A DNA stretch of 64,000 nt from assembly GCA_963783635.1 (NCBI GenBank), contig CAWAOC010000002.1:28920-92919 (forward strand), written 5' to 3'. Of the stretch, positions 4,853-48,968 are shown in pieces; position 1 is the stretch's first letter; each line of letters opens with the position of its first letter. Source of the DNA: an uncultured Gammaproteobacteria bacterium (lineage in GTDB: Bacteria; Pseudomonadota; Gammaproteobacteria; Burkholderiales; Usitatibacteraceae). A program made the position numbers and the translations under genes. Under the pieces are notes generated by a model, which did no database searches, was not told where the DNA came from, and worked only from the letters and a program-made list of their open reading frames with translations.

Positions 4853-4943
4853 GGTCCCCGCAGTGTAGCAAGCGCGCTTGAGCGCAGGCCGGCCGGCGGG
4901 CTACCCTGTGGCTTGCGCGAACGAAATCATCCCAGGTGCCCCC

Positions 4944-8672: not shown

Positions 8673-11462
8673 ATGGTCACCCGGCTTTTCTCCCGCACTC
8701 CCCTTCACGAGCATCCCGAGGCCGCGCAGCGGATCCTGGGCGTGGAGCAACTCCCCCCCGATTCCGCCGAGCTGGCCGCCCTCGTGGCCGCCGATCCGGC
8801 ACCGGAAGTGCGCGCGGCCGCCGCCGCGCGCTGCGCCGATCTCTCCGCGCTCGCGAACGCCTGGGAGAAGGAAGCCGACGCCGGGGTCCGCGACGCGCTG
8901 GCCGCCGCGCTGGGCCGCGTCCTTTCCGGGACGCCCGACGGCGCCGCCGCCCGCGCGTTCCTCGAGTCCTCCGCCTGCAACGACGCCATCCGCGCCGACG
9001 TGGCCCGCCACGCCAAGGACGCCGACCGGCGCCTCGCCGCCATCGCGAGCCTGCGCGACGAGGCGCTCCTCGTCGAGCTGGCGATTTCCGGCGGGACACG
9101 CGGAAACGCGGCTCGCGGCCGCCGAATGCGTGCGCTCCCCGGAGGGGCTGCGCGCCCTGGTCGACGCCGCCCGCAACAAGGACCGCGGGGTGGCGCGCCT
9201 CGCCAAGCAGCGGCTGGAGGCGCAGCAGGACCGCGAGGGGCAGGCGAGCGAAGCCGACGCGATCCTCGCCCAGCTCGAGGCCCTGGCCGGCACGCCCGGC
9301 CCCATCCTCACGGCCGTGGTGGACCTCAATCGCCGCTGGCAGGCGCTGGACATGCGCGAGGACGCCGCCCGCCTCGAGCGCTGCGACGCCGCGCGCCGCG
9401 CGCTGCAGGCGCGCTTCGACCGCGAGCAGGCCGAGCAGGCGGCGCGCGCGAAGTTCGAGCGCCGCGTGAACGACTGGATCGGCGGCGCTGGCCGCACCCG
9501 ACGGCCCGGACGCGCTCGCCGGCCTGCGCGCCGAGCTCGCCGCCCTTCGCGACGAGGCGGCCGCCCTCGGCGACGAAGCCGGCGCGCGAACGCCTCGCGC
9601 AGGCCGGGACGCGCATCGAAGGCTGGGAGCAGGAACTGAAGGCGCTCGCGGGCGCCGAGGCGCTGGTCGTCGAGGCCGAGCGCCTGGCCGCCGACACCTC
9701 CGTGGACAACGCGCAGCTTCCGGAGCGCTGGCAGGCGCTGGACCGCGCGATCCGCACGCCGGCGCTCACGCGCCGCTTCGAGGCGGCGCTGGTGGTGGTC
9801 GAGCAGCGAAGGCTCGCGCAGGCGCAGGTCGCGCGCGAGGAGACGCACGCCGCGCGAAACCGCGTGCACGCCCTGCTGCTCGCGGCGGAGCAGGCGCTCG
9901 CCGCGGGGCAGCTGCACGCGGCGCGCGCCGCGGTGGACGAGATGAAGACGATCAAGGGCGAGGCCGGCGCGCTGCCGAAGCCGACCCAGCAGCGCATGGG
10001 CCGCGTCGGCCAGCAGCTGGGCGAGCTGGAGCGCTGGGAGTCGTTCGGCCAGCAGAGCGCGCGCCTGCAGCTTTGCGAGCGCGCCGAGGCGATCCTCGCG
10101 CAGGGCCTGGACGCCTCCCGCACGGCCGCGGAAGTGAAGAAGCTGCGCGAGGAATGGAAGGCGCTCGACGCGCAGCACGCGGGCGTGCCGCGCTCGCTGT
10201 GGGAGCGCTTCGACGGCGCCTGCGAGAAGGCCTACGCGCCCGCCGCGCGCCATTTCGCGGAGCTGGCGGCGCAGCGCAAGCTCGCGCGCAAGCAGCGCGA
10301 GGACTTCATCGCCGCCGCCGCCGCGCACGCGCCCACGCTGCTCGGCGAATCGCCGGACCCGCGCGCCATCGAGCGATGGCTGCGCGAGACCGACCGCGCC
10401 TGGCGCGAGGGCGAGCTGGGCAGCGTCGATCCGTCCGCGTGGAAGAAGCTCGACGCGCGCCTCAAGGAAGCGCGTCGCCCCGCTGCGCGCCGTGCTGGGC
10501 GAGGCGCGCGAGCAGGCGAAGAGCGGCCGCCTCGCGCTCATCGCCGAGGTCGAGGCGCTGATGCCGCGCGCCATGGATCGCGAGGCGCCCTCGCTGGTGA
10601 AGGCCATCCAGGCGCGCTGGCAGGAGCACGCCAAGGCCCACCCGCTCGCGCAGCGCGACGAGCGCGGGCTGTGGGAGCGGTTCCGCGCCGCCTGCGACGC
10701 CGTGTTCGAGGCCCGCCACGCCAAGCGCAAGGAGGAGGACGGCCGCAAGGTCGAGGGCCGCCGCTCCCTCGAGGAGATCTGCATCCAGCTCGAGCAGCTC
10801 GCGAAGGCGAGCGACAAGGACGAGAAGGACGTGCGCGCGCAGTTTCGCGACCTGCAGGACCGCTGGCGCGCCGGCGCCCGCGGCGCCGACCCGGCGCTGC
10901 GCGCCGCTCGAGGGGCGGTTCCGCAGCGCGGTGAAGGCGGTGGAGGGGGCGCTCTCGGCGCGCGCGCGGACGCGCGAGGCGGCCGTCTGGAAGACGCTCG
11001 CCGCAGAAGGAACTCCTGTGCGAGGCGCTCGAGGCCGCCGTGCTTTCCGGCGGCGACGCCGGCTCGCCCGACGCGGCGCGCGAGCAGTGGGCCGCCCTGC
11101 CCGAGCTGCCGCCGGCCTGGGAGAAGAAGATGCTCGCGAGGCGCGATGCCGCGCTCGCCGCGCTCGCCGACGCCGCTGCGGCCGGCGCCTACCGCCCGCG
11201 CCTCGAGAAGGGCGCGGAGACCCGCCGCGAGGGGCTCCTCGAGCTCGAGATGGCGATGGGGCTCGAGAGCCCCGCGGACCTCCAGCCGCAGCGGCTGGCG
11301 CTGCAGGTGAAGCTCCTCAAGGAGCGCTTCGGGGGTGCCGCCACCGGCCCGGCCACGACCGGCGATCGCCTGCTCGCGTGGTGCGCGCAGCCCGGCGTCG
11401 TCGACGGGCGCGACGGCGAGCGCCGCGACCGCCTGTTCGCCGCGATGGGGCAGGCGCGATAG
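8673..11462 (+). pseudogene. DUF349-domain protein (about 930 codons); about 7 frame breaks
   Basis: Repeated DUF349-type modules are present: RWQALDRAIRTP, EEWKALDAQHAGVPRSLWERFDGACEKAY, ARWQEHAKAHPLAQRDERGLWERFRAACDAVF. The pieces are spread over ORFs 8673, 9130, 10492, 10931 and 11040. Confidence 0.7.
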
Positions 11463-11491
11463 CGTGGTCGAGGGACGAGCCGGTCGATGAA

Positions 11492-12363
11492 ATGATGCTG
11501 GAGCTTCCCAACCCGTTCGGCGGCGAGGGCGGCGTGATCCGCCTCCTCGAGCCGCGGCAGTGCGACCGCGAGGCGATCGTCGATCGCATCCTCGCCGGCA
11601 CGTACCCGAAGCCGTTCGTGATCGAGGACGACGGCGCGCGCGCGCTCTACTTCACGCGCGCCTTCATCCAGAGCGAGATGCGGCTCGCGGACCCGTACGC
11701 GCTCGAGTTCGCCTACACGCGCAAGATGATGGGCTTCCTCCTCTTCCTCCCCGAGCCGCGCGCGATCCTGCAGCTGGGCCTGGGCGGGGGGTCGCTCGCG
11801 AAGTACTGCCACCGCCACTTCGCCGCGGCGAGGATCACGGTCGTCGAGATCGACCCGGACGTCATCGCCTTCCGCGAGCAGTTCCTCGTGCCGCCCGACG
11901 ACGCGCGCCTCCGGGTCGCTGCAGGGCGACGCCGCGCAGTACGTCGCGCAGTGCGAGGACGACCACGACGTCGTCCTCATCGACGCCTTCGACCGCGACG
12001 GGGTCGCCCCGTCCCTCTGCACGCGCGAGTTCTACCGGGACGTGCGGGGACTCCTCGGGCGCAAGGGCGTCATGGTGGCGAACCTCGTGGGCCGGAAGGA
12101 GGAGCGCCTCGCGCACCTCGAGATGATCCGCACCGTCTTCGACGGCAACGTGATCCTGCTTCCCGTCGCCGACGACGGGAACTACGTCGCCTTCGCGTTC
12201 CGCGACCCGGCCTTCGAGCCGCGCTGGCGCTGGATCGACGGCCAGGCGAAGGCGATGCACGCCCGCTACGGGCTCGATTTCCCGACGTTCGCGGGGAAGC
12301 TGGAGCGAAGCCGCAAGCGCGGCACCCTGCGGCGCGAGATGCTCCGCGCCGCCGTCGCGCTGA
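11492..12363 (+). pseudogene. Spermidine-synthase-like class I SAM-dependent methyltransferase; at least 1 frame break, 3' end uncertain
   Basis: ILQLGLGGGSLAKYCHRHF...ITVVEIDPDVIAFREQF and DVVLIDAFDRDGVAPSLCTREFY lie in two frames. Confidence 0.55.
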
Positions 12364-12371
12364 GCCCGGCT

Positions 12372-13986
12372 TCAGCCCTTGTCCGGATCGGCGGCGGTCA
12401 CGAGCTCGCGCTCGTCGAGCTCTTCCTCGATGATGCGCGCGGTCTCGTCGTTGATCTCGTCGGCCTTGAGCAGCTCGAGGAGCCGCGCGCGCTCCGCCGC
12501 GATGCCGACGAGCCGGAGCTGGCGGGCCGCGGCGATCCGCTCGGTGCGCATCGCCGCGGTTTCCGGCGGGCTCTCGCGCAGGTCCACCTTGCCCTGGTAG
12601 CGCCCGAGCAGCGCGCGCGCGAAGGCCTGGTCCTCGTCCTGCTCGAATCGGTCGGCCGCCGGCTTCACCGCGGCGATGGCCGCCTTGGCGAGCTCCACGC
12701 GGGCGTGCGCCTCCTCGCGCGGGCCCTCCGGATCGTCCTTGGCCTGCAGGCGCGGGATGATCCAGGGAAGCGTCAGGCCGTTGAGCCCCAGCGTGAGGAT
12801 GATGGTGGCCGCCGCGAGGAAGACGACCAGGTCGCGCTCCGGGAACGGCGTGCCGGCCTGCGTGAACAGCGGCACCGCGAGCGCGGTGGCGAGCGTGATG
12901 GAGCCCCGCACCGCCGCCCAGCCCACGAGGAACATGCGCCGCGGATCCGGGCCTTCGGCTGCCGCCCGCCCAGCCCCAGCCGAAATAGAACCGCGCGTAG
13001 CCCGACGCCCAGACCCAGCGCGAGGCGCAGGACCATGAGCACCGCCCACAGCGCGATCGCCCAGTACGCCAGGTGCAGGGCGTCGTGGTTGGCCACGCCG
13101 GCGATCATCTGCCGCAACTGCAGGCCGAGCAGCACGAAGACGAGGCCGTTGAAGAACCACGCGATCATCCGCCAGACCTCGCGCGCGTGGCGGCGGCTTT
13201 CCGGGGAGAGCCCCTTCACTTCCTGGCCGCCGGCCCACAGCCCGGAGGCGACCACCGCGAGGATGCCCGAGACGTGCAGGGCTTCCGCCACGAGGTAGGC
13301 CGCGTAGGGGACGAGGACGGTGAGCAGCGTCTGCACGACCGGGTCGTCCTTCTCCATGCGGATGAGGCGCTCGCGGAACTTGCGCCCGAGCCACTCGATC
13401 ATGATGCCGACGCACAGGCCGCCGCCCGGACAGGATGACGAACTGGCCCGTCACCAGGTCCATCGGACGTGTGTCCCGCGGCCAGGGCGGCCGCCACGGC
13501 GAGCTTGAAGGCGACCAGTCCCGTGGCGTCGTTGAGCAGGCTCTCGGCGTTCACGATGTGCGTCACGCGCGCCGGCAGCGGCATGGTGGCCGTCGTGGCC
13601 ACCGTCGCGACGGCGTCGGTCGGCGAGACGATCGCCCCGAGGGTGAACGCGACCGCGAGGGGAATGGACGGGATGAGCCAGTGGATGAAGTAGCCCACCG
13701 CGACGACGGTGAGCACCACGAGGCCGAGCGCCAGCAGCAGCACGGGCTTCAGGACATGCAGCAGGTCGCGCCGCGGCAGCACGCGCGCGTCCGCGAAGAG
13801 CAGCGGGGGAATGAAGAGCAGGAGGAACACCTCCGGGTCGACCTTCACGGCCTGCAGCCCCGGCAGGAACGAGGCGACGGCGCCCACGACCACGAGGAAG
13901 ATCGGCAGGGGCATGCGCGACCAGGGCGCGATGACGCCCCCGACGGCGGTCAGGACGATGACGGGGGCGAGGTCGATGACTTGCAT
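12372..13986 (-). pseudogene. CPA1-family Na+/H+ antiporter; at least 3 frame breaks
   Basis: The start is MQVIDLAPVIVLTAVGG. The TM core contains TLGAIVSPTDAVATVA and NAESLLNDATGLVAFK. A C-terminal cytoplasmic domain ends AADPDKG*. The pieces lie in ORFs 13399..13986, 12773..13402 and 12372..13463. Confidence 0.8.
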
Positions 13987-14127: not shown

Positions 14128-16103
<1,976 letters not shown>

Positions 16104-38550: not shown

Positions 38551-38615
38551 GGGGCGCCAGGGAAAGGGGTCGGATCCCATTTTCGCAAGGAAAACGGGAT
38601 CCGATGCACCCTTTT

Positions 38616-39368
38616 TTACATCTGCTTGAAGAGGTGCGAGTAGATGCGCGAGACGGTGAGGGTCTCGTCCTTGCCCTTCACCTTGATGTGCGCCTGGCCG
38701 CGGAAGTCGCGCGTGACGCCCGCGATCGCGTTCACGTTCACGATGGCGGAACGGTGGATCTGCCAGAAGGTGTCGGGGTCGAGGCCGTCGAGGAGCTCGC
38801 GGATGGGCGTCTTGATGAGCGCCTCGGAGTCCGCCGTCACCACGCGCGTGTACTTTTCATCCGACTGGAAGAAGAGCACCTCGGCCACGGGAATGAGGCG
38901 CAGGTTCTGCCCGAAGCTCGCCTTGATCCACTGCAGCTTCTCCTTGCCCGCGCCGCCGCGCAGCTGCGTCGCGAGCTGCGAGACGATGGCGTTGAGGTCC
39001 GGCGGCGGGCTCGCGAGCTTGGCCTTCAGGCGCTCGATCGTCACCGCGAGGCGCTCGTCGGTGTAGGGCTTGAGGATGTAGTCGACCGCGCCCGTCTCGA
39101 AGGCCTGGATGGCGTACTGGTCGTAGGCGGTCACGAAGACGACGTGCGCGCGGTTGCCCACGTGGCGCGCGACCTCCACGCCCGTCATCTCCGGCATCTG
39201 GATGTCGAGGAACATGAAGTCGGGCGCGCGGTCCTCGAGCGCCTCCAGCGCCGCGGCGCCGTCCTCCACGGACGCGATGACCTCGAGCTCCGGCCAGAGC
39301 TTCTCGAGCTTCGACTCGAGCTGCTCGCGCAGGATCGGCTCGTCTTCGGCGAGGATGGCGGTCGGCAT
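38616..39368 (-). CDS. LytTR-family response regulator (RR1)
   Basis: Intact 250-codon ORF. The receiver domain reads ILAEDEPILR...FLDIQMPEMTG...VFVTAYDQYA. The LytTR domain reads IPVAEVLFFQSDEKYTRVVT...FWQIHRSAIVN. Confidence 0.9.
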   Translation of the reverse strand: MPTAILAEDEPILREQLESKLEKLWPELEVIASVEDGAAALEALEDRAPDFMFLDIQMPEMTGVEVARHVGNRAHVVFVTAYDQYAIQAFETGAVDYILKPYTDERLAVTIERLKAKLASPPPDLNAIVSQLATQLRGGAGKEKLQWIKASFGQNLRLIPVAEVLFFQSDEKYTRVVTADSEALIKTPIRELLDGLDPDTFWQIHRSAIVNVNAIAGVTRDFRGQAHIKVKGKDETLTVSRIYSHLFKQM

Positions 39369-39377
39369 GCGCGAATC

Positions 39378-40930
39378 CTACCGCTTGAGCGCCCGCTTGA
39401 GGATCTTGCCGGTGGCGGTCATCGGCAGCGACTCCACGATCTCCACGATGCGCGGGTACTTGAAGCTCGCCATCCGCTCCTTGCACCACGCGATGACCGC
39501 CTCCGGCGTGGCCTGCTTGCCGGGGCGCAGCACGATCACGGCCTTCACCTCCTCGCCGTGGGTCTCGTGCGGCACGCCGATGACGGCCACCTGCGCGATG
39601 GCCTCGTGGGTCATCATCACCTCCTCGAGCTCGCGCGGATAGACGTTGAAGCCGCCGCGGATCACCATGTCCTTCAGGCGGTCGACGATGTAGAAGTTGC
39701 CCGCCTCGTCCATCTTGCCGATGTCGCCGGTGTGGAACCAGCCGTCGCGGATCGCCGCGGCGGTCGCCTGCGGGTTGCGGTAGTAGCCCTTCATCACGTT
39801 GTGGCCGCGGATCACGATCTCGCCCGGCTGGCCGGGCGGCAGCGGCGCGCCGGCCTCGTCCACGATGCGCATCTGCGTGCCCCAGATGGCCTGGCCGACG
39901 CTGCCGGGGATGCGCGGGGCGTCGAAGGAGCTGAACGTGGCCACGGGGCTCGTCTCCGAGAGCCCGTAGCCCTCGAAGATCGGGATCGCGAAGCGCTCCT
40001 CGAAGCGGCGCATCACCTCCACCGGCATCGCGGCGCCGCCCGAGATGCCCACGCGCAGCTTCGCCGCGATGGCCTTCAGGTCGTGGCGCTCCTCGGCGCC
40101 GGGCAGGTTCAGGATCGCCATGTACATCGTCGGCACGCCCGCGAAGATGGTCACCCCGTGCTTCTGCATGCGCGGCGAGCGCGGCGTCCGGGTCGAAGCG
40201 CGGCAGCAGCACCATCGAGGCGCCGCACCACAGCACGGCGTTCATCTGCACGCTCTGGCCGAAGGAATGGAAGAGCGGCAGCGCCACCAGGTGGCAGTCC
40301 GCCGCGCCCATCCGCGCGATCATGCAGGAGTTGAAGGCGTTCATCGCCAGGTTGGCGTGCGAGAGCTCCGCGCCCTTGGGCCGGCCCGTGGTCCCCGAGG
40401 TGTAGAGGATGACGGCGGTGTCGTTCGCGTCGGCTTCGGCGCAGGGGCCCTCGCCGGGCTGGCCGTGCATGAAGGCGCCCAGCGTTCGCGCCCCCTCGAT
40501 CGGGGAGGGCTTGGCGGGGTCGCCCGTGATCACGACGAACTCGGGGCACTTGCCGTACTGCACGAAGCCCGCGTGGCCTTCCTTCCCCAGCGGCAGGTCG
40601 GCGCTGCCCTCGAAGCAGAAGAACAGCCTTCGCCTGCGCGTCCTCGAGCTGGTAGGCGATCTCGGGCGCCTTGCCGAGGATGCTCACCGGCACGACCGTG
40701 GCGCCGGCCTTGAGGATGCCGTAGTAGACGATCGGGAAATACGGCAGGTTCGGGCACGCCAGCGCCACGTTGTCGCCGCGGCCGATGCCCAGCGCGCGCA
40801 GCCCGTTCGCCACGCGGTTGGCGGCCGCGTCCAGCTCCGCGTAGGTGATGGTGCGGTCGGCGAAGAAGATCGCCGCCTTGCCGGGGTGCACCTGGGCGCC
40901 CCGCTCGAGGCCCTGGGCCAGGTTGATCAT
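39378..40930 (-). pseudogene. Long-chain fatty acid-CoA ligase (AMP-binding, FadD-like); 2 frame breaks
   Basis: AMP-binding motif ILYTSGTTGRPKGAELSH, plus EGYGLSETSP, WFHTGDIG and ATGKILKR. The breaks are near 40625 and 40170. Confidence 0.85.
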
Positions 40931-40947
40931 CGACGATCCTCCGTTGC

Positions 40948-42096
40948 TCAGAGCGAGCGGGAAATGAGTTCCTTCATGATCTCGTTCGAGCCGCCGTAGA
41001 TGCGGGATACCCGCGCGTCGGCCCAGGCGCGCGCGATGGGATATTCCCACATGTAGCCGTTGCCGCCGTGCAATTGCAGGCAGGCGTCGATCACCTTGCA
41101 CTGCAGGTCCGTGCACCAGTACTTCGCCATGGAGGCGGTGGCCGCGTCGAGCGTGCCGGCGAGCACGAGCTCCAGGCAGCGGTCGACGAACACGCGCGCG
41201 ATCTGCAGCTCCGTCTTCGCCTCCGCGAGCGTGAAGCGCGTGTTCTGGAACTCCAGGATCGTCTTCCCGAAGGCCTTGCGGTCGCGGCAGTAGTCGAGCG
41301 TCCAGTCGAGCGCCGCCTCGGCGAGCGCCACCGCCGTGAGGGCGATCTGCAGCCGCTCCCAGGGCAGTTCCTGCATCAGGTAGGCGAAGCCCCGGCCTTC
41401 CTCGCCGAGGCGGTGGCCCGCGGGCACGCGGACGCCGTCGAAGAAGAGCTCGCCCGTGTCCTGCGCCTTGAGGCCCACCTTCTCGAGCCGGCGGCCCTTG
41501 GTGAAGCCCGCCATGGTGGTATCGACCACGAAGAGGCTCGTGCCGCTGGCGCCGCGCGAGGCGTCGGTCTTCGCCGCCACGACCACGAGGTCGCAGTGGA
41601 AGCCGTTGGTGATGAAGGTCTTGGCGCCGTTGAGCACGTAGTGGTCGCCGTCGCGCACGGCGGTGGCGCGGATGCCCTGCAGGTCGGAGCCGGCGCCCGG
41701 CTCGGTCATCGCGATGGCGCCGATCAGCTCACCCGTCGCCATTCTCGGCAGGTAGGCGCGCTTGAGGTCCTCGGTGCCGTAGTGCAGGAGGTAGGGCGCG
41801 ACGATGTCCGAGTGCAGCGACCATCCGAGGAGGCTCACCGCCCCCAGCCGCGCGGTCTCCTCGAAGACCACGACGCTGTAGCGCCGGTCCGCGCCCGCGC
41901 CGCCGTACTCCTCCGGCATCGTCGGGCACAGGAACCCGGCCGCGCCGCCCTTCAGCCAGATGTCGCGGTCGATGAAGCCCTGCTTCTCGTGGCGCTCGCG
42001 GTGCGGCAGCACCTCGGTGACGACGAAGCGGCGCAGGGCATCGCGGAATTGTTCGTGCTCGGGCTCGAAGAGCGTGCGCGGGATGGAGAAGGCCAT
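40948..42096 (-). CDS. Acyl-CoA dehydrogenase
   Basis: Intact 382-codon ORF: AIAMTEPGAGSDLQGI...FITNG...QLHGGNGYMWEYPIARAWADARVSRIYGGSNEIM. Confidence 0.9.
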   Translation of the reverse strand: MAFSIPRTLFEPEHEQFRDALRRFVVTEVLPHRERHEKQGFIDRDIWLKGGAAGFLCPTMPEEYGGAGADRRYSVVVFEETARLGAVSLLGWSLHSDIVAPYLLHYGTEDLKRAYLPRMATGELIGAIAMTEPGAGSDLQGIRATAVRDGDHYVLNGAKTFITNGFHCDLVVVAAKTDASRGASGTSLFVVDTTMAGFTKGRRLEKVGLKAQDTGELFFDGVRVPAGHRLGEEGRGFAYLMQELPWERLQIALTAVALAEAALDWTLDYCRDRKAFGKTILEFQNTRFTLAEAKTELQIARVFVDRCLELVLAGTLDAATASMAKYWCTDLQCKVIDACLQLHGGNGYMWEYPIARAWADARVSRIYGGSNEIMKELISRSL

Positions 42097-42105
42097 CCGG
42101 GCATT

Positions 42106-44320
42106 CTAACCGGCGGGCGGCTCTTCCCTGGGCAGCGGGGGCGGCGTGGACGGCGGCGCAGGCGCGGCGGGCGCCGGCGGCGGCGCCGGCTGCATCACGG
42201 GCTCGACCTTGGGCCGCGGCGCCGGGGCCGGCTCGGGCACTTTCGTCTTGCGGAAGAGCCACCAGCCGAACAGCCCCAGGAGGGCCACCGGCGCGAGCGC
42301 GGGCGACAGGGCGATCAGGACGACCACCGGGATGAAGATCGCCAGCGCCAGGAAGAGCCAGCCCAGGCCGTAGACGATCGCGGCCAGGATGCCCAGCACG
42401 AGCACGATGGCGGCGAAGGCGATCACGATCCCCGCGGCGCCGAGGAGCGCCCCGCCCGGGCCCGTGAGCGTCTCCGAGCCCACCTGCACCGGCATGGCGC
42501 CCGTGAGCACGGCGAAGACGCGCGAGGCCGGCCAGCACGGCGGCCACCACCACCAGGGCCACGAAGGTGAACGACAGGCGTCTTCCGCCAGGTGCGCTCG
42601 GCCTTGCCGACCACGGCGATCACCTTGCCGGCCCGCGTCTTCGGCTCGGCCGGCTGGGCGGGCGCGGCATCGGCGGCGAAGGCGCCCGTGCCGACCGGCG
42701 GCATCGCGGCCGGCGGCTTGAGTCCCTCCAGCGGCGCCTCGATGGTGGCGATGACGCCCGTGGGCGAGTTCGACTCCAGCGTGAGCTTCGCCTTCTCGCC
42801 GTAGAGCGCGACCAGCCGCTCGCGGATGTTGGCGAGCCCCACGCCCGCGCCGACGGTGTCGCCGAAGCCCGCGGCCGGTGTCCGACACCGTGAGGCGCAG
42901 CTTCCCGTCCTGCGCCTGCGCGGAGATGAGCACGGCGCCGCCCTCGCGCTGCGGCTCCAGGCCGTGCTTGATGGCGTTCTCGACGAGCGAGGGCAGCATG
43001 AGCGGCGGGAAGGGCGTGGCCAGCAGGCTCTCGGGCACGGAGATCTCGAAGGAGAGCCGCTTGCCCATGCGCATCTGCAGGATGTTGAGGTAGGCGCGCA
43101 CCAGCTCGACCTCCTGCCCGACGGTCGAGATCGACTCGCGCATCTTCGGCAGCGCGTTGCGCAGGTACTGGATGAGGTGGCCCACCATCGTGTGGGCCCG
43201 CGCCGGGTCCACCTCGGTGAGCGCCTGCACGTTGGCGAGCGTGTTGTAGAGGAAGTGCGGCTCCACCTGCGCCTGGAGGGCCTGCAGCTTCGCCTCCGTC
43301 ACCTGCTGGCTCATGCGGTGGTACTCGGCCTCCTTCCTCTTCAGGTCGGCCATGCGCTGGGCGGCGCGCGAGCGGTCGATGAAGAACTTCGCGATGGCGG
43401 TGAGGATGAAGAGCGGGATGAAGATCAGCACGAGGGCCGCGCCGATGCCGATCTTCTTCAGGTCCCCGCTCACGTTCTGGCGGATCTGCGCGCGCAGCTC
43501 CGGCGGCAGCGGCGCCACCACCACGCCGCCGGGACCCCCGATGTGGACGCCGCCGATGGCGGGCGGGGTGGGCGGCTCCGGCGGCTTCGGCGACGCGCCC
43601 TTGGTCGCGTCGTCGAGGTCGATCGTGATGGAGCCGCTCGGCCCCTTGCCGCCGGAGCCGAACTTGAGCACTTCGACGCGCGGCTTCTCGCCGGGCGCCG
43701 GTCTTGCGGGATCGATGTCGACCAGCGCGCGGTCCTTGCCGGGGCCCACGTCGATGACGATCCGCTTGGGCGCCCTGGCTCGCTGCCGGTCCCTGGCGAG
43801 CGCCTTCTTCGCCTCCTCCTCGGCCTCCTTGGCCGACTTGAGCGACTGCTCGAGCGCCTCCCTCACCTTCGTGTTCTCGACGCCGGCGTCCTTGAGCGCC
43901 TCCTCGGCGCTGCGGCGGGCCTCCTCGATGGCCGTGGCGGCATCGCGGGCCGCCTCCCGCGCCGTGTCGACCGCCTCGCGCTTGGCCCGGAGGACCTCGC
44001 GGCCGGCGTCGCGCAGTTCCGCGCGGGCGCTGTCGAGCTCCTCGAGGGCGCGGTCGAGCTCCTCGCGGCGGGCCGGGTCGGAGGTGGCCCCGCGCATGGC
44101 GAGGATCGTGCTCCTGCGCGATGTCCATGGCCCCTTCGGCGAAGGTGTTGTCGATCTCGCGCTTGATGGCCTTGTTCTCGTCCGGCGTCGCGCCTTCCTT
44201 CCGGTACTCGATGAGGTGGAAGGGGGTCACGAAGACGGCGAGCGCGATCACGACGGCGAAGCCGCCGAAGACGAGGCCCCACCAGGGCGTGCGGTGGATG
44301 AAGTCGGAAAGGGGTTTCAT
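42106..44320 (-). pseudogene. LytS/YehU-type sensor histidine kinase (HK1) with atypical N- and C-terminal regions; at least 3-5 frame breaks
   Basis: Motifs are QVEPHFLYNTLANV (His_kinase PF06580 type), LVENAIKHG and GVGLANIRERL. One N-terminal TM is followed by about 200 residues of charged coiled-coil-like sequence and a second TM. A hydrophobic, Pro-rich tail follows the ATPase domain. Confidence 0.8.
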
Positions 44321-44371
44321 GGATTCGGGGATCGCGGCGCCCCCGGAAGATACCCGGAAGGGCGCCAATGG

Positions 44372-44482
44372 TCAGTAGTCTTCGAGCATCGCCACGGCGG
44401 CGATGGCCACCGACAGCATCAGCACGCCGTAGAAGACGAACAGCGAGGAAAGCGACGGTGCGAGCGACTGGATGAACGACAT
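44372..44482 (-). CDS. 36-codon hydrophobic ORF (MSFIQSLAPSLSSLFVFYGVLMLSVAIAAVAMLEDY)
   Basis: The ATG is preceded by CAGGGAGCC. One predicted TM. It lies 51 bp upstream of HK1 and downstream of the repeat-containing promoter-like region. No homology is known to me. Confidence 0.4.
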   Translation of the reverse strand: MSFIQSLAPSLSSLFVFYGVLMLSVAIAAVAMLEDY

Positions 44483-44532
44483 GGTCCGGCTCCCTGTGGT
44501 CTTTGGGCCCCTCCGGGGGGCTCGATGGAGCC

Positions 44533-44604
44533 AGATTAGGGGGGTGCCGGGGCCGGGGCGACGGGCAGGCGCCGAAATGCAGGAAACGGGGGGCGAAATG
44601 CAGG
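44533..44604 (-). promoter_or_regulatory. Promoter-like region: CCTGCATTTCG-N10-CCTGCATTTCG-N34-TAATCT (minus strand)
   Basis: Plus-strand repeats are at 44594..44604 and 44573..44583, with the -10 at 44533..44538. The repeats have 21-bp phasing. There is no good -35, consistent with activator dependence. Confidence 0.55.
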
Positions 44605-44635
44605 CGGCGGGGACGGCCGGCATTGAAGCCCGAGC

Positions 44636-45422
44636 CTACATCTGCTTGAACAGGTGGGTGAAGTTGCGGGAGACGATGAGCGTCTCCCGGTGGCCCTTGA
44701 GGGCGATCTCGGCCTGGTCCTTGAGCCCCCGGCGGACGGAGGCGATGTGGTCCACGTTCACGATGGTGGCGCGGTGGACCTGCCAGAACTTCTCGGGGTC
44801 GAGCTCGTCGAGGAGCTCCTTGATGGGCTTGCGGATGAGCGTCTCGGCCTCGCACGTCACCACCCGCGTGTACTTCTCGTCGGACTGGAAGAAGAGGATC
44901 TCCTCGACGGGGATGAGGCGCACGCTCTGCCCCACGCTCGCCTTGATCCAGCGCAGGTGGTCGCCGTTGCGCGCGGCGCGAGGCGGCTCGCCAGGCGCTC
45001 GACCAGGTCGTCCATGGCCGGCGGGGCGCCGGAGAGCCGCTCCCGCAGCCGCTCGACCGTGGTCGCCAGGCGCTCCTCGTTGAAGGGCTTCAGGACGTAG
45101 TCGATGGCCCCCTGCTCGAAGGCCTCGACCGCGTACTGGTCGAAGGCGGTCACGAAGACGACGTGCGCGCGCTTGCCGACCACGCGCGCGGCCTCCAGGC
45201 CGTTCACGCCGGGCATGTGGATGTCGAGGAAGAAGAGGCTCGGGGCGTGCGTCGCGACCACCTGCTCGATGTCGCGGCCGTTCTCCATCTCGTGGACGAT
45301 GGCGAGCTCGGGCCAGAGCCGGGCCAGCCGCGCGCGCAGCTGCGCCCTCAGCAGGGGTTCGTCGTCGGCGATGACGGCGCTTGCGCGACCACGATCCGCG
45401 GTGACGGCGTCGGCGTTCCCAT
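44636..45422 (-). pseudogene. LytTR-family response regulator (RR2); about 2 frame breaks
   Basis: VIADDEPLLRAQL...FLDIHMPGVNG...VFVTAFDQYA, then RWIKASVGQSVRLIPVEEILFFQSDEKYTRVVT...FWQVHRATIVN. Confidence 0.8.
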
Positions 45423-45434
45423 GGGGCGGCAGTA

Positions 45435-46537
45435 TCAGGCACACGCGCTCGCAACGGAAGATGCCGGCGCCGGCGCGCCAGCCGGGGCGGGGACGTCCAC
45501 CTCGATCGTCGCCACCACGCCGCGCGGCACGTTCTCCTCGATCACGAGGCGGGCGCCCGTCCCGTAGAGGGCCTTCAGGCGCTCGCGGATGTTCGTGAGG
45601 CCCACCCCGGTGCCCTTCTTCGGCGAGATGCCCTCGCCCGTGTCCGCCACCGACAGGCGCAGGCGCCCGCCCTCCTCCCGCGGCGCGGATGGTGATCGTG
45701 CCCGCCTCGCAGCAGGGATCGACGCCGTGGATCACCGCGTTCTCGACGAGGGTGATGAGCATCATGGGCGGGAACGGCCGGCAGCGCAGGTCCTCGGGGA
45801 CGTCGAGCACGTAGTCGAGCCGCGAGCCCATGCGCATGCGGTGGATGTCGAGGAAGGCCTTCGACATGTCGATCTCGCGGCCGACGGTGGTGGAGTCCTC
45901 CCGCATGCGCGGCAGCGCCGCGCGCAGGTACTGGATGAGGCTTTCCAGCATGCGCGAGGCCGAGGCCGGATCGGTCTCGACGAGGTGCTGGACGTTCGCG
46001 AGCGTGTTGAACAGGAAGTGCGGCTCCACCTGCGCCTGCATGAGGGCGAGCTGGGCCTGCAGGACGTTCTTCTCGAGCTGCGCGCGCTCGGCCTGGGCGC
46101 GGGCGAGCTCCGCCGCGCTGGCGCGATTGCCGCTCGCGGAAGACGTAGACCCACACGGCCATGCACCCGAAGCCGATGCCCAGCCCCATGGTGATGAGCA
46201 CGCCGTAGTAGCGCTCGGTGAACATCGTCGCGATGTCGCGGCCCTTCACCACGCCGGCGAGCATCGTGCCGAGGAAGGAGCCCACGACGATCGAGGCGAC
46301 CTGGATCGCCCAGCGCGGCAGGCGCTGGCCGCGCAGGTTCGTGGCGACGGTGAAGAGGACCATGCTGGTGTAGCCCACGCACAGGGCGCTCACGAGCAGG
46401 TCGAGGTAGGTGTTGGCGAAGAACCAGACGATGGCCGCCGCCGCCCAGACGCACAGGACCGTGACCAGCAGCACGCGCCTGGGCGTGAGTCCCTCGAGGA
46501 GGTAGGCGTAGCGGTTCACGGCGGCCGGGGAGGACAT
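45435..46537 (-). pseudogene. LytS-type sensor histidine kinase (HK2), about 4 N-terminal TM segments; about 2 frame breaks
   Basis: QVEPHFLFNTLANVQHL, LVENAVIHG and GVGLTNIRERLKALYG are present. It ends 12 bp upstream of RR2. Confidence 0.8.
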
Positions 46538-46848
46538 GAAGTCGCCGGAAGGGTATCAGTTGCCGGCGGTGCTGACGCGGTCGCGCGGCTTCCAGCGGCC
46601 GGCGATGCCCGGGCGGGAGGCGGTGAAGAACTGCGCCGGCCTTTGCGACACCGGGCGGAGCGGTTCCGGGGTCCCGAGGCGGGCGATCCAGGGTGCGGGC
46701 AGGGGGCGGGTGGGTCGGTTCATGGGCGGGCTCTCTGGATTCGAAGGCTACGCGGGGCGATTCGCCGAAACCACCGTCCTGCGACGAAACGCGCCGGCGG
46801 GGGATCGGAATGCGCCGGGACAGGGCATTTGGGGAGGGTCAGGCTTTC

Positions 46849-46874
46849 GGGGACGTGTCCGCGAACACGTCCCC
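46849..46874. repeat. REP-B copy 3 (GGGGACGTGTCCGCGAACACGTCCCC, 1 mismatch)
   Basis: Read directly. It is intergenic. Confidence 0.8.
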
Positions 46875-46900
46875 AAAAAAGACCCGGCCGAAGCCGGGCA
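46875..46900 (-). terminator. Rho-independent terminator CCCGGC-TTCG-GCCGGG + TCTTTTTT (minus strand)
   Basis: Canonical GC stem, tetraloop and T6 tract, 27 bp downstream of the small ORF stop at 46927. Confidence 0.65.
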
Positions 46901-46926
46901 GGGGGATCGAACTACTTGGGGAGAAT

Positions 46927-47055
46927 TCAGGCGCCGACGACCATGGCGCCGACGGTGACCGCGAAGGTGAGCGCAAACCAACCGGCGATGACCGCCGTGA
47001 TCGCCGTGGAAACCCGGAAGGCGCGTGGCGGAACGACCCGGTCGAGGGTGGCCAT
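46927..47055 (-). CDS. 42-codon hydrophobic ORF (MATLDRVVPPRAFRVSTAITAVIAGWFALTFAVTVGAMVVGA)
   Basis: The ATG is preceded by AAGGGGGAC. One predicted TM. A terminator follows. Confidence 0.35.
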   Translation of the reverse strand: MATLDRVVPPRAFRVSTAITAVIAGWFALTFAVTVGAMVVGA

Positions 47056-47065
47056 GGCGTCCCCC

Positions 47066-47358
47066 TTACGGGCGGAAGGCGAAGGGCAGCGCGACTTCGA
47101 GCGACGGGCCGCCGGTCGAGCCGGACCGCGGCGGTGCGGGTCGACCGGGCGGGGCTGCCCGCGTTGCCGTTTTCGGCGGTCACGGTGAGCTTCATGGCGC
47201 CATCGTTCGAGAGGGTCACGGCGTTTCCGTGCGCTGCGCTCGCGGGCCGGCTTCGCGATGGCTTCGTGCGTGGTCACCATCCAGCCCACCAGCAGGGCGG
47301 CGGTGACGGCGGCCAGCGACGAAACACCGATCAGGTCCAGCTTCTCGACTTTGCTCAT
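47066..47358 (-). pseudogene. Small signal-anchored hypothetical protein (about 97 codons if two frame breaks are bridged)
   Basis: The ATG at 47358 is preceded by GAGGGAGAG. The translation is MSKVEKLDLIGVSSLAAVTAALLVGWMVTTHEAIAKPA, then HGNAVTLSNDGAMKLTVTAENGNAG, with a possible end ...GGPSLEVALPFAFRP* at 47066. The reconstruction is speculative. Confidence 0.3.
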
Positions 47359-47411
47359 GGCGACTCTCCCTCTACGGCTCGGCACCCGGCGGGTGCGTTC
47401 GACTTGCCGCC

Positions 47412-47482
47412 AGATTAAGGAGGCGCGAGGGGGGCCTGAAGCGGAAAGCGACGAAATGCGGAAAAGGAGGGGCGAAACGCCG
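47412..47482 (-). promoter_or_regulatory. Paralogous promoter-like region: CGGCGTTTCG-N11-CCGCATTTCG-N34-TAATCT (minus strand)
   Basis: Plus-strand repeats are at 47473..47482 and 47452..47461, with the -10 at 47412..47417. Phasing (21 bp) and repeat-to-minus-10 distance (34 bp) are the same as at 44533..44604. Both regions share CCAGATTA(A/G)GG. Confidence 0.5.
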
Positions 47483-47518
47483 CCGGACGGGGGGTATGCG
47501 GAATCCCGGCCGCGGAAA

Positions 47519-48968
47519 TCAGGCCCCGGCGTGGGTGCCGTGCCGGGCGTCCTTCACCAGCTGCGGGGCGTAGGACCCCACGGCGATCCCGATGGCGGAG
47601 GCCGCGAGCCCGACGATCTGGGGCGGGATCTCGGCGTCCGCGAAGAACTTCTCGCAGATGCCCCAGACCACCAGGCCCACCACCGAGGAGACGAGCGCGC
47701 CCTGGGTGGAGGCGCGGTGCCAGTAGATGCCGCAGACGAGCGGCACGAAGGCCCCCACCAGCGTCACCTTGTAGGCGTTCTGCACCATCTCGTACATGGT
47801 GCTCGTGTTGTTGAGCGCGAACACGAGCACGCCCGCGGTGAAGAAGACGAGCACCGTGCGCAGCATCACCAGGAAGCGCTTGTCGCTCATGTTGCCGAAG
47901 AGCGGCTTCACCACGTTCTCGGTGAAGAGCGCCGTGGGCGCCAGGAGCGCGCCCGAGGCCGTGGACAGGATCGCCGACAGCAGCGCCCCGAAGAACATCA
48001 CCTGCGCGAAGATCGGCGTATGGGCGAGGACGAGGTTGGGCAGGATGAGCTGCACCTCCCGCCCTTCCGTCTTGAGGAGCGGCTCGACCATCTTCGGGTC
48101 GACGAGGAGGGCCGCGTAGGCGAGGAAGATCGGCACGAAGGCGAAGCAGAAGTACGCCGCCGCCCCCAGGAGCGAGCCCTTGATCGCGGTCTTCTCGTTC
48201 TTGGCGCTCGTCACGCGCTGGAAGACGTCCTGCTGCGGGATCGAGCCCACGGCCATCGTGACCCAGGCCGCGACGAACGCCCACCACTCCTTGCTCCCGC
48301 CCGTCGGCCAGAACTGGAACTTGCCGGCGGCGGAGGCGTGCGAGACCACCGTCCCGAACCCGCCCGCCATGCCCGAGACGAGCACCGCCACGTAGATGAG
48401 GCCCACCACGATGACCACCGACTGGAAGAGGTCCGTCAGCGCCACCGACCACATGCCGCCGAAGGTGGTGTAGACGAGGACGATCACCGCGCCGATGAGG
48501 ATGCCCTGGTCGAGGCGAGATGGCGCCCTGCGAGAGGGAGTTGAAGACGATGCCCAGCGCCGTGAGCTGGGCCGAGGTCCACCCGAGGTAGGAAAGGGTC
48601 ACCGCGAGGCTCGTGAGGACCTCCACCCCCTTGCCGTAGCGCTTCTTGTAGAAGTCGCCGATGGTGAGGAGGTCCATGCGGTAGAACGCGCGGGCGAAGA
48701 AGAGCGCCACGAAGACGAGGCAGAAGCTCGCCCCGAACGGGTCCGCCGGGATGCCGCCCAGGCCGTCCTTCACGAAGGTCGCCGAGACGGAGAGCACCGT
48801 CTCCGCCCCGAACCAGGTGGCGAAGACCGTCGCCGTGTTCATGTACAGCGGCAGGCCGCGGCCGGCCACCAGGTAGTCCTTGGAGTTCGAGACGAACTTC
48901 GCCGCGTACAGGCCGATGGCGATGGTGACGACGAGGTAGGCGAGCGTGAAGAAGACGAGCGTGGTCAT
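47519..48968 (-). pseudogene. Sodium:solute symporter (SSS) family transporter; 1 frame break near 48510
   Basis: MTTLVFFTLAYLVVTIAIGLYAAKFVSNSKDYLVAGRGLP...TWFGAETVL continues in ORF 47519..48487. Confidence 0.85.

Follow-up and report, generated by a model that had tools for sequence, protein, structure and literature searches.

Conserved direct repeats at 21-bp phasing form a probable LytTR activator operator in front of a LytS/LytTR operon of Usitatibacteraceae-like betaproteobacteria

What is the role of two perfect 11-bp direct repeats that stand in front of a 36-codon open reading frame (ORF) and a kinase gene? We addressed this question in a 64,000-nt stretch of DNA from an uncultured gammaproteobacterium of the family Usitatibacteraceae (contig CAWAOC010000002.1, positions 28,920 to 92,919), hereafter the window. 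The repeats, which we call site A, lie on the minus strand in the gap of 153 bp that separates the stop codon of a response regulator gene, RR2 (TAG, ending at 44636), from the ATG of the small ORF, s36, at 44482. On the same strand s36 is followed by genes for a LytS-type histidine kinase, HK2, and another response regulator, RR1. An earlier sequence-only reading of this DNA had proposed that the repeats are an operator for LytTR regulators at a weak, autoregulated promoter, within an agr/com-style circuit set in a fatty-acyl-CoA context. Its coordinates for the repeats, the -10 hexamer, the RR2 stop and the small ORF are all correct on the minus strand. Judged by orthologous sequences, the repeats are real and conserved, a far stronger case than the window sequence alone could make. 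They are most likely a LytTR activator operator upstream of a weak sigma-70-type promoter that drives s36, HK2, RR1 and, in some loci, genes for an acyl-CoA dehydrogenase (ACAD) and an acyl-CoA synthetase (ACS). Site A comprises the following elements.

44594..44604, minus strand: distal half-site CCTGCATTTCG, at about -78..-68 from the predicted start site
44573..44583, minus strand: proximal half-site CCTGCATTTCG, at about -57..-47, the better conserved of the two
44605..44625, minus strand: weak third upstream half-site GCCGGCCGTC at ~20-bp phasing, degenerate in the window though well formed in some relatives

Both main half-sites are perfect copies of the same 11-mer, with a 10-nt spacer and 21-bp phasing, and these two copies are the only ones in the 64 kb. 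Since perfect 11-mers are repeated within 12-40 bp at about ten places in the window, a perfect repeat alone is weak evidence. Conservation was assessed at orthologous loci, two of them obtained via homologues and 68 via a genome scan with the HK2-specific N-terminus; 71 upstream regions were used for repeat conservation, and 62 aligned instances of site A for column conservation and promoter geometry. When compared with the pair TCTGCATTTCG, allowing at most 5 mismatches in 22, a half-site pair (about yCTGCAwTyCG) was present at exactly 21 bp in 47 of the 71 upstream regions, versus 6 of 71 at 20 bp and none at 22 bp. The controls (71 reversed, 66 coding and 355 shuffled sequences) contained no such pair, even at 6 mismatches. 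The proximal half-site is nearly invariant among the aligned instances (tTCTGCAwTyCG.C), with columns C23, G25, C26 and T29 identical in 62 of 62 loci. Columns that were not used for site choice are conserved too (spacer CCC, T21 and C34), while the flanks are not, and conservation reaches loci in which the HK2 N-terminus is only 45-50% identical. Retention at orthologous loci had been set beforehand as a test that could refute the operator, and the repeats passed it, being kept in ~60 related genomes.

A position-weight matrix (PWM) built from site A and scanned for pairs over 728 kb, on both strands, returned 78 pairs at 21 bp. All are on the operon strand, and all fall either at site A or at a paralogous site, site B; essentially none were found on the opposite strand or in reversed controls. 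Instances of site B had been left out of the training of the matrix, so that only the site B matches and the controls are independent. At 20 bp the scan gave 11 further pairs; all are located upstream of the distal repeat and reflect the third, upstream half-site present in some loci.

Site B, identified by a motif-pair scan of the window, lies in front of two small genes upstream of RR2 and its partner kinase gene, HK1.

47452..47483, minus strand: site B, GCGGCGTTTCG-N10-TCCGCATTTCG, a paralogous operator with 21-bp phasing
47412..47417, minus strand: -10-like hexamer TAATCT of site B, 34 nt after the proximal repeat
47358..47066, minus strand: B1, a membrane-anchored protein of ~96 aa, frameshifted
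47055..46927, minus strand: B2w, a 42-aa membrane microprotein
46872..46899, minus strand: intrinsic terminator between B2w and HK1, also found in L001

The anatomy of site B is that of site A, namely N10, N34 and then TAATCTGGC, and the site was recovered independently in 32 loci with a near-invariant block, TCCGCATTTCGTCGCTTTCCGCTTC. Its half-sites carry TCCGCA where those of site A have TCTGCA. We infer that it controls a conserved two-gene unit, B1-B2w, which lies upstream of HK1/RR2 and is closed by the terminator, itself conserved. B1 carries the motifs DG.MKLTVTA and PSLEVALPFAFRP, B2w the motif AGWFALTF, and neither protein has a match in Pfam or NCBIfam.

The sequence downstream of the repeats argues for a promoter of fixed geometry. 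In the window, its two hexamers are as follows.

44556..44561, minus strand: degenerate -35-like hexamer TCGCCC, separated by 11 nt from the proximal repeat and by 17 nt from the -10
44533..44538, minus strand: -10-like hexamer TAATCT, 34 nt after the proximal repeat

A TAnnnT hexamer starts 34 nt after the proximal repeat in 42 of the 62 aligned loci, 35 nt after it in 15 and 33 nt in one; none of the other offsets between 0 and 49 has such a hexamer. A T.G triplet stands at offset 11 or 12 in 57/62 loci, in the same proportions, so that the spacer to the -10 is 17 nt; the common layout, in 57-58 of the 62, is repeat, N11/12, T.Gnnn, N17, TAnnnT. Distant relatives carry an explicit TTGAGA-N17-TATTCT, and in the cultured Usitatibacter rugosus (locus L002) the -10-like hexamer is TAGATT. 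A consensus promoter scan of the window gave nothing at 9 of 12 matches, and the promoter at site A is recognisable only from comparative geometry. The earlier statement that no usable -35 is present is therefore only partly right, since a degenerate TCGCCC does occur at the canonical 17 nt yet is far from consensus. The fixed geometry supports the view that the repeats stand just upstream of a weak sigma-70-type core promoter. Assuming a start ~7 nt after the -10, the half-sites would be centred near -52 and -73. A sigma-54 reading of TAATCTGGC...GC was rejected on inspection, the GG/GC spacing fitting neither site A nor site B.

Which genes would such a promoter serve, and which regulator would act on it? 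Because of the many small indels in this gene string, its proteins were rebuilt across reading frames. The neighbourhood survey combined Pfam gene calls for L001 and L002 with tblastn maps of 70 loci made with the cluster's own proteins, and reached ~6-8 kb on each side. The genes concerned, s36 aside, are listed here.

45435..46537, minus strand: HK1 kinase (PF06580 and HATPase_c), frameshifted in the window
44636..45422, minus strand: RR2 (Response_reg and LytTR), partner of HK1, with two small indels; predicted alternative or additional binder
42106..44320, minus strand: HK2, LytS-type histidine kinase (PF06580 and HATPase_c), with several frameshifts in the window
40948..42096, minus strand: ACAD, starting 9 nt after HK2
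39378..40930, minus strand: ACS (AMP-binding), with two frameshifts, found only in this window
38616..39368, minus strand: RR1 (Response_reg and LytTR), conserved partner of HK2; predicted to be the likely site A binder

That two Response_reg-LytTR regulators are encoded in this gene string, as had been proposed, was confirmed by Pfam, with E-values for LytTR (PF04397) of 5e-23 and 4.5e-22 for RR1 and RR2, respectively. Gaps of 9, 17 and 9 nt separate HK2 from ACAD, ACAD from ACS and ACS from RR1, which indicates that the repeats front one compact operon, s36-HK2-ACAD-ACS-RR1. The conserved order across loci is SSF transporter, site B, small proteins, HK1, RR2, site A, (s36), HK2, RR1, and the pairing of site A with a LytTR regulator holds in all complete orthologous loci. 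Only four loci (the window, L001, L003 and L005) have the dehydrogenase, and the synthetase was found in the window only. The acyl-CoA genes thus represent a lineage-specific insertion outside the core system, and the fatty-acyl-CoA context that had been read into the locus is not part of it. HK2 is one of a large and uncharacterised family, with at least 120 homologues at 52% identity or more among the matches listed. Relatives with a named organism are mostly Betaproteobacteria or metagenome-assembled genomes (MAGs) of Usitatibacter/Usitatibacteraceae, together with two labelled Lysobacter sp. and Usitatibacter rugosus.

The architecture of the kinases can be read from their translations. 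HK1, of ~360 aa, has four predicted transmembrane (TM) helices at its N-terminus. HK2 consists of TM1, ~250 charged residues, TM2, the His_kinase and HATPase_c domains and a C-terminal multi-TM tail, and its Pfam matches are limited to His_kinase (PF06580) and HATPase_c. The charged segment between TM1 and TM2 and the membrane tail of four or five helices after the ATPase domain are unusual for a PF06580 kinase; neither has a Pfam model, and the layout is conserved in the homologues examined. Within the coding region for the charged, repetitive segment, GTCGAGCTCCTCG is also repeated at 21 bp (44032..44065). Some loci (L030, L002 at 11061-12961, L012, L013, L021, L026 and L036) carry a third, paralogous pair of LytS-type kinase and LytTR regulator directly downstream of RR1. 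In L030 that pair is preceded by its own 21-bp-phased repeats, ..CCCTTTCA..N..CCTTCGTTTCGTC, at 8905-8939.

The mechanism that we propose is as follows. A phosphorylated LytTR regulator would bind as a tandem dimer to the direct repeats, of which there are two or sometimes three, recruit RNA polymerase and activate the operon s36-HK2-ACAD-ACS-RR1. The HK2/RR1 two-component system would thereby be under positive autoregulation, with s36 co-induced with HK2, while site B, as a sister operator, would drive the two small membrane proteins upstream of HK1/RR2. The most likely binder of site A is RR1, and autoregulation by RR1 is likely. L038, L045, L048 and L055 carry HK2-RR1 and site A with no HK1/RR2 within 4-6 kb upstream, and the persistence of site A in these four loci favours RR1. 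RR2, a close paralogue encoded just upstream (58% identical to RR1), may be a further binder, in which case a cascade from HK1/RR2 to HK2/RR1 would arise. In a weak alignment to AgrA from a search of solved structures (E about 0.3, a hint only), RR1 and RR2 share the residues at the putative base-contact positions, which we take from the AgrA-DNA structure; this is consistent with the similarity of the half-sites at A and B.

Several points weigh against this reading. RR1 and RR2 are not told apart by these data, and HK1/RR2 could lie elsewhere in the genomes that apparently do not have them. Where transcription starts and whether the regulator activates or represses are deduced from geometry alone. 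PWM matches at site A are partly circular, as the matrix was built from that site, and the indels in the window make single-base spacings unsafe when taken from the window alone, although here orthologues corroborate them. In PyhjX, the yhjX promoter of Escherichia coli, the proximal repeat overlaps the -35 region, while at site A 11 nt lie between the end of this repeat and the -35, and the exact mode of activation may therefore differ. Finally, some LytTR proteins, such as CoxC, repress through similar repeats (PMC11347149). On balance, the comparative evidence supports well the idea of a LytTR operator at an autoregulated promoter, with binding and activation as its predicted components.

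The example of CoxC raises the possibility that the same LytTR operator serves repression or negative autoregulation. CoxC acts through direct repeats of related sequence, and a CoxC-like MHYT-LytTR gene lies beside a GCATTTCG-N13-GCATTTCG pair in L092. We regard repression as unlikely, since the repeats of CoxC overlap the -35, whereas at site A 11-12 nt separate the proximal repeat from the downstream -35-like element in 57/62 loci, and since the weak core promoter of the window clade, together with this placement of the repeats, is described in the literature as typical of activator-dependent promoters. Even less likely, in our view, is that a non-LytTR factor binds the repeats or that they are a conserved DNA feature unrelated to RR1/RR2. 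Binding by RR1/RR2 is a prediction, and close relatives can also retain GC-rich intergenic DNA for unrelated reasons. Such explanations sit poorly with repeats that outlast their flanks in loci with HK2 N-termini of only 45-50% identity, with strict 21-bp direct-repeat phasing, with the invariable co-occurrence of the site with LytTR regulators (including site B and the third pair in L030) and with a core motif that is common to experimentally defined LytTR sites. That the repeat arose by chance and is without function has next to no probability: the window does abound in short perfect repeats, as noted above, but orthologous conservation, the second paralogous site, strand and position specificity and the fixed promoter geometry refute it.

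The agr/com-style circuit of the sequence-only reading implies peptide autoinduction, in which s36 would be the precursor of a secreted or processed pheromone, HK2 its sensor and the LytTR regulator the element that closes the loop. A small ORF, a kinase and a LytTR regulator behind a direct-repeat operator do resemble plnABCD and agr, and s36 is real, conserved and the first gene of the operon, with induction predicted. The likeness to these Gram-positive systems, whose regulators are AgrA, ComE and PlnC/D, extends to paired repeats ~12 bp apart, a weak promoter and positive autoregulation (here predicted), and plnABCD, too, carries two LytTR regulators; the gene orders of agr, com and pln are taken from general knowledge. 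Against it, HK1 and HK2 are of the LytS/YehU type (PF06580 and HATPase_c) rather than the AgrC/ComD type (HPK10), and there is no gene for an AgrB-like protein or a C39-peptidase/ABC exporter among the conserved neighbours within ~6-8 kb on each side, which are SSF, small proteins, HK/RR pairs, ACAD and housekeeping genes only. Moreover, s36 is a hydrophobic helix followed by L-E-D-Y, with neither a double-glycine leader nor an AgrD-like tail, its 24-aa versions are helix only, and in about half of the loci the operator and HK2-RR1 persist without it. The agr/com-style circuit was thus not borne out, s36 being dispensable across the family, and we hold it very improbable. Similarly remote is a loop in which s36, perhaps with B2w, would be an exported or released hydrophobic peptide sensed by HK2 and the repeats would close the circuit, with LytS-type kinases and no known processing enzyme; if true, an uncultured lineage of betaproteobacteria would have autoinduction that resembles agr/pln.

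If site A is an activator operator, as we favour, how does it compare with LytTR sites that have been described? Published sites consist of two direct repeats of 8-13 bp, ~12 bp apart, whose spacing is critical; the majority are activator sites placed upstream of the -35 (PMC4847170; PMC4064291; PMC11347149). Site A agrees with them in repeat size (its conserved half-site core is ~12 nt), in spacing, in its place upstream of the predicted -35 and in the presence of a LytTR gene in the locus. The closest parallel is the E. coli YpdB (PyrR) operator, which reads GGCATTTCAT-N11-GGCATTTCAT in the yhjX promoter, 21 bp centre to centre. It has in common with site A the GCATTTC core, the 21-bp phasing and a Response_reg-LytTR regulator that works with a PF06580 kinase and activates a sigma-70 promoter, activation at site A being predicted. 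The two differ in that the proximal repeat in PyhjX is ~18 nt from the -10, compared to 34 nt at site A, in their flanks, and in the regulators themselves, RR1 being only 29% identical to YpdB. Furthermore, the target of YpdB is a transporter gene, whereas the predicted targets here are the regulator's own operon and small membrane proteins. HK1 and HK2 have no Pfam match to the 5TM-LytS or GAF sensor domains of the YpdA/BtsS type, and the regulators score 131 and 135 bits against the NCBIfam BtsR equivalog, with a cut-off of 246, and also miss the cut-off of the LytR equivalog. By these comparisons the HK/RR pairs described here are related to but distinct from YpdA/YpdB and BtsS/BtsR.

Other LytTR systems offer partial likenesses. 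The 5' part of the site A half-site, TTCCTGCA (tTTCTGCA), fits the RcoM motif TTCNNGCA, and RcoM1 and CoxC use direct repeats (TTCNNGCA / TTNNNGCN) with 12-13-nt spacers, sometimes three of them, much as a third repeat occurs occasionally here. However, these are one-component sensors (haem/PAS or MHYT) and not response regulators, and the sites of CoxC overlap the -35 and repress. HK1 resembles AlgZ(FimS) of Pseudomonas, the partner of AlgR, in being a small PF06580 kinase with four predicted TM helices and a LytTR partner; unlike site A, the sites of AlgR (CCGTTCGTC) are mostly single, without 21-bp-phased direct repeats. An AlgR-like half-site was rejected, as the consensus CCGTTCGTC aligns to the site A half-site only with a gap. 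The claim that a circuit of this kind had not been described was therefore overstated, given the match of core and phasing to the YpdB operator and of the 5' part to TTCNNGCA. What we have here is a known design of regulatory site in an uncharacterised, mostly uncultured lineage, and no new kind of mechanism.

An exact-pattern scan of metagenomes gave 120 matches, mostly unrelated tandem repeats or coding sequence, with L158, L166 and L187 as the only true relatives and no new target genes of this system. A GCATTTCG-N13-GCATTTCG pair occurs in metagenomes beside other LytTR proteins (loci L092 at 4882-4910, L078, L190, L178 at 2342-2370, L116 and L124). In L092, for example, the pair accompanies a CoxC-like MHYT-LytTR gene that has a coxM-like gene just downstream. 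In another case a low-GC LytTR regulator and a kinase precede the site, after which come TATAAT and ABC transporter genes; a third case is a LytS/LytTR operon that opens with small two-helix membrane proteins. A GCATTTC-type half-site at 21 bp may thus be common to divergent LytTR proteins, namely YpdB, RcoM/CoxC (5' part), the regulators described here and a Firmicute-like system. If this class of half-site is widely shared, it would help regulon prediction.

We now turn to the first gene behind site A.

44372..44482, minus strand: s36 (MSFIQSLAPSLSSLFVFYGVLMLSVAIAAVAMLEDY), a 36-codon single-helix membrane microprotein

That this hydrophobic ORF is a genuine gene is borne out by its conservation and codon usage. 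Its length is exactly 36 codons in 22 loci, and its GC1/2/3 values are 0.62/0.38/0.92. The Shine-Dalgarno (GGGAG at 44494..44490, 7 nt before the ATG in the window) is conserved, as are the G-V-L, S and L-x-D-Y positions. A homologue search with a natural 43-aa variant of s36 found 11 relatives, all 36-aa "hypothetical" proteins, and there is no match to s36 in Pfam or NCBIfam. The protein is essentially one transmembrane helix ending in L-E-D-Y, in which we found no leader or processing motif; the natural 24-aa versions are in frame. In the distant loci that do not have s36 there is no room for it, because HK2 starts ~85 nt after the repeats. A plausible role for s36 is to assist HK2 in the membrane or to modulate it by feedback, more so than to act as a secreted signal. 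The microprotein MgrB exerts feedback on the sensor kinase PhoQ, and s36 would resemble it as a tiny single-helix membrane protein whose gene is regulator-induced and next to a kinase gene (here predicted). There is no sequence similarity between the two, and s36 is predicted to be co-transcribed with its own kinase, whereas MgrB is encoded elsewhere, so that the comparison is a lead only.

Between the s36 stop and the HK2 start (44321..44371, minus strand), 16 relatives share a block, CC(G/C)GGTATC(T/G)TCC, with little or no variation. Read jointly with the stop-codon context, it gives CTGACC-N17-TATCTT, which may be a weak internal promoter that could provide basal expression of HK2-RR1. An RNA hairpin at this place was rejected, with a minimum free energy (MFE) of -23.7 kcal/mol, z = -0.65, and no covarying structure in RNAalifold. 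The block is conserved as sequence rather than as RNA structure.

The state of the window itself calls for comment. Its G+C content is ~70%, and nearly every gene between 38600 and 48500 (HK1, RR2, HK2, the acyl-CoA synthetase, B1 and SSF) is frame-split by small indels. When compared to four relatives, RR2 shows a 1-nt deletion and a 2-nt CA insertion, at ~45408 and 44969..44968. Neither is a homopolymer slip, and homopolymer errors were rejected as the source of these two frameshifts. The indels point to an error-prone assembly or to pseudogenisation, and ORF-based annotation of 38600..48500 is unreliable. Elsewhere in the window there is a 9/12-bp tandem array, GCCGCCCATGCC, at about 14142..14185.

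Taken together, these findings provide a well-supported and testable model of a cis-element and its promoter for two paired LytS/LytTR two-component systems, widespread but uncharacterised, in Usitatibacteraceae-like betaproteobacteria of soil and water. Of the loose ends, the conserved microproteins are the most interesting: two membrane proteins, of 36 and 42 aa, encoded among the first genes of operons predicted to be under LytTR control, are candidate modulators of kinases.

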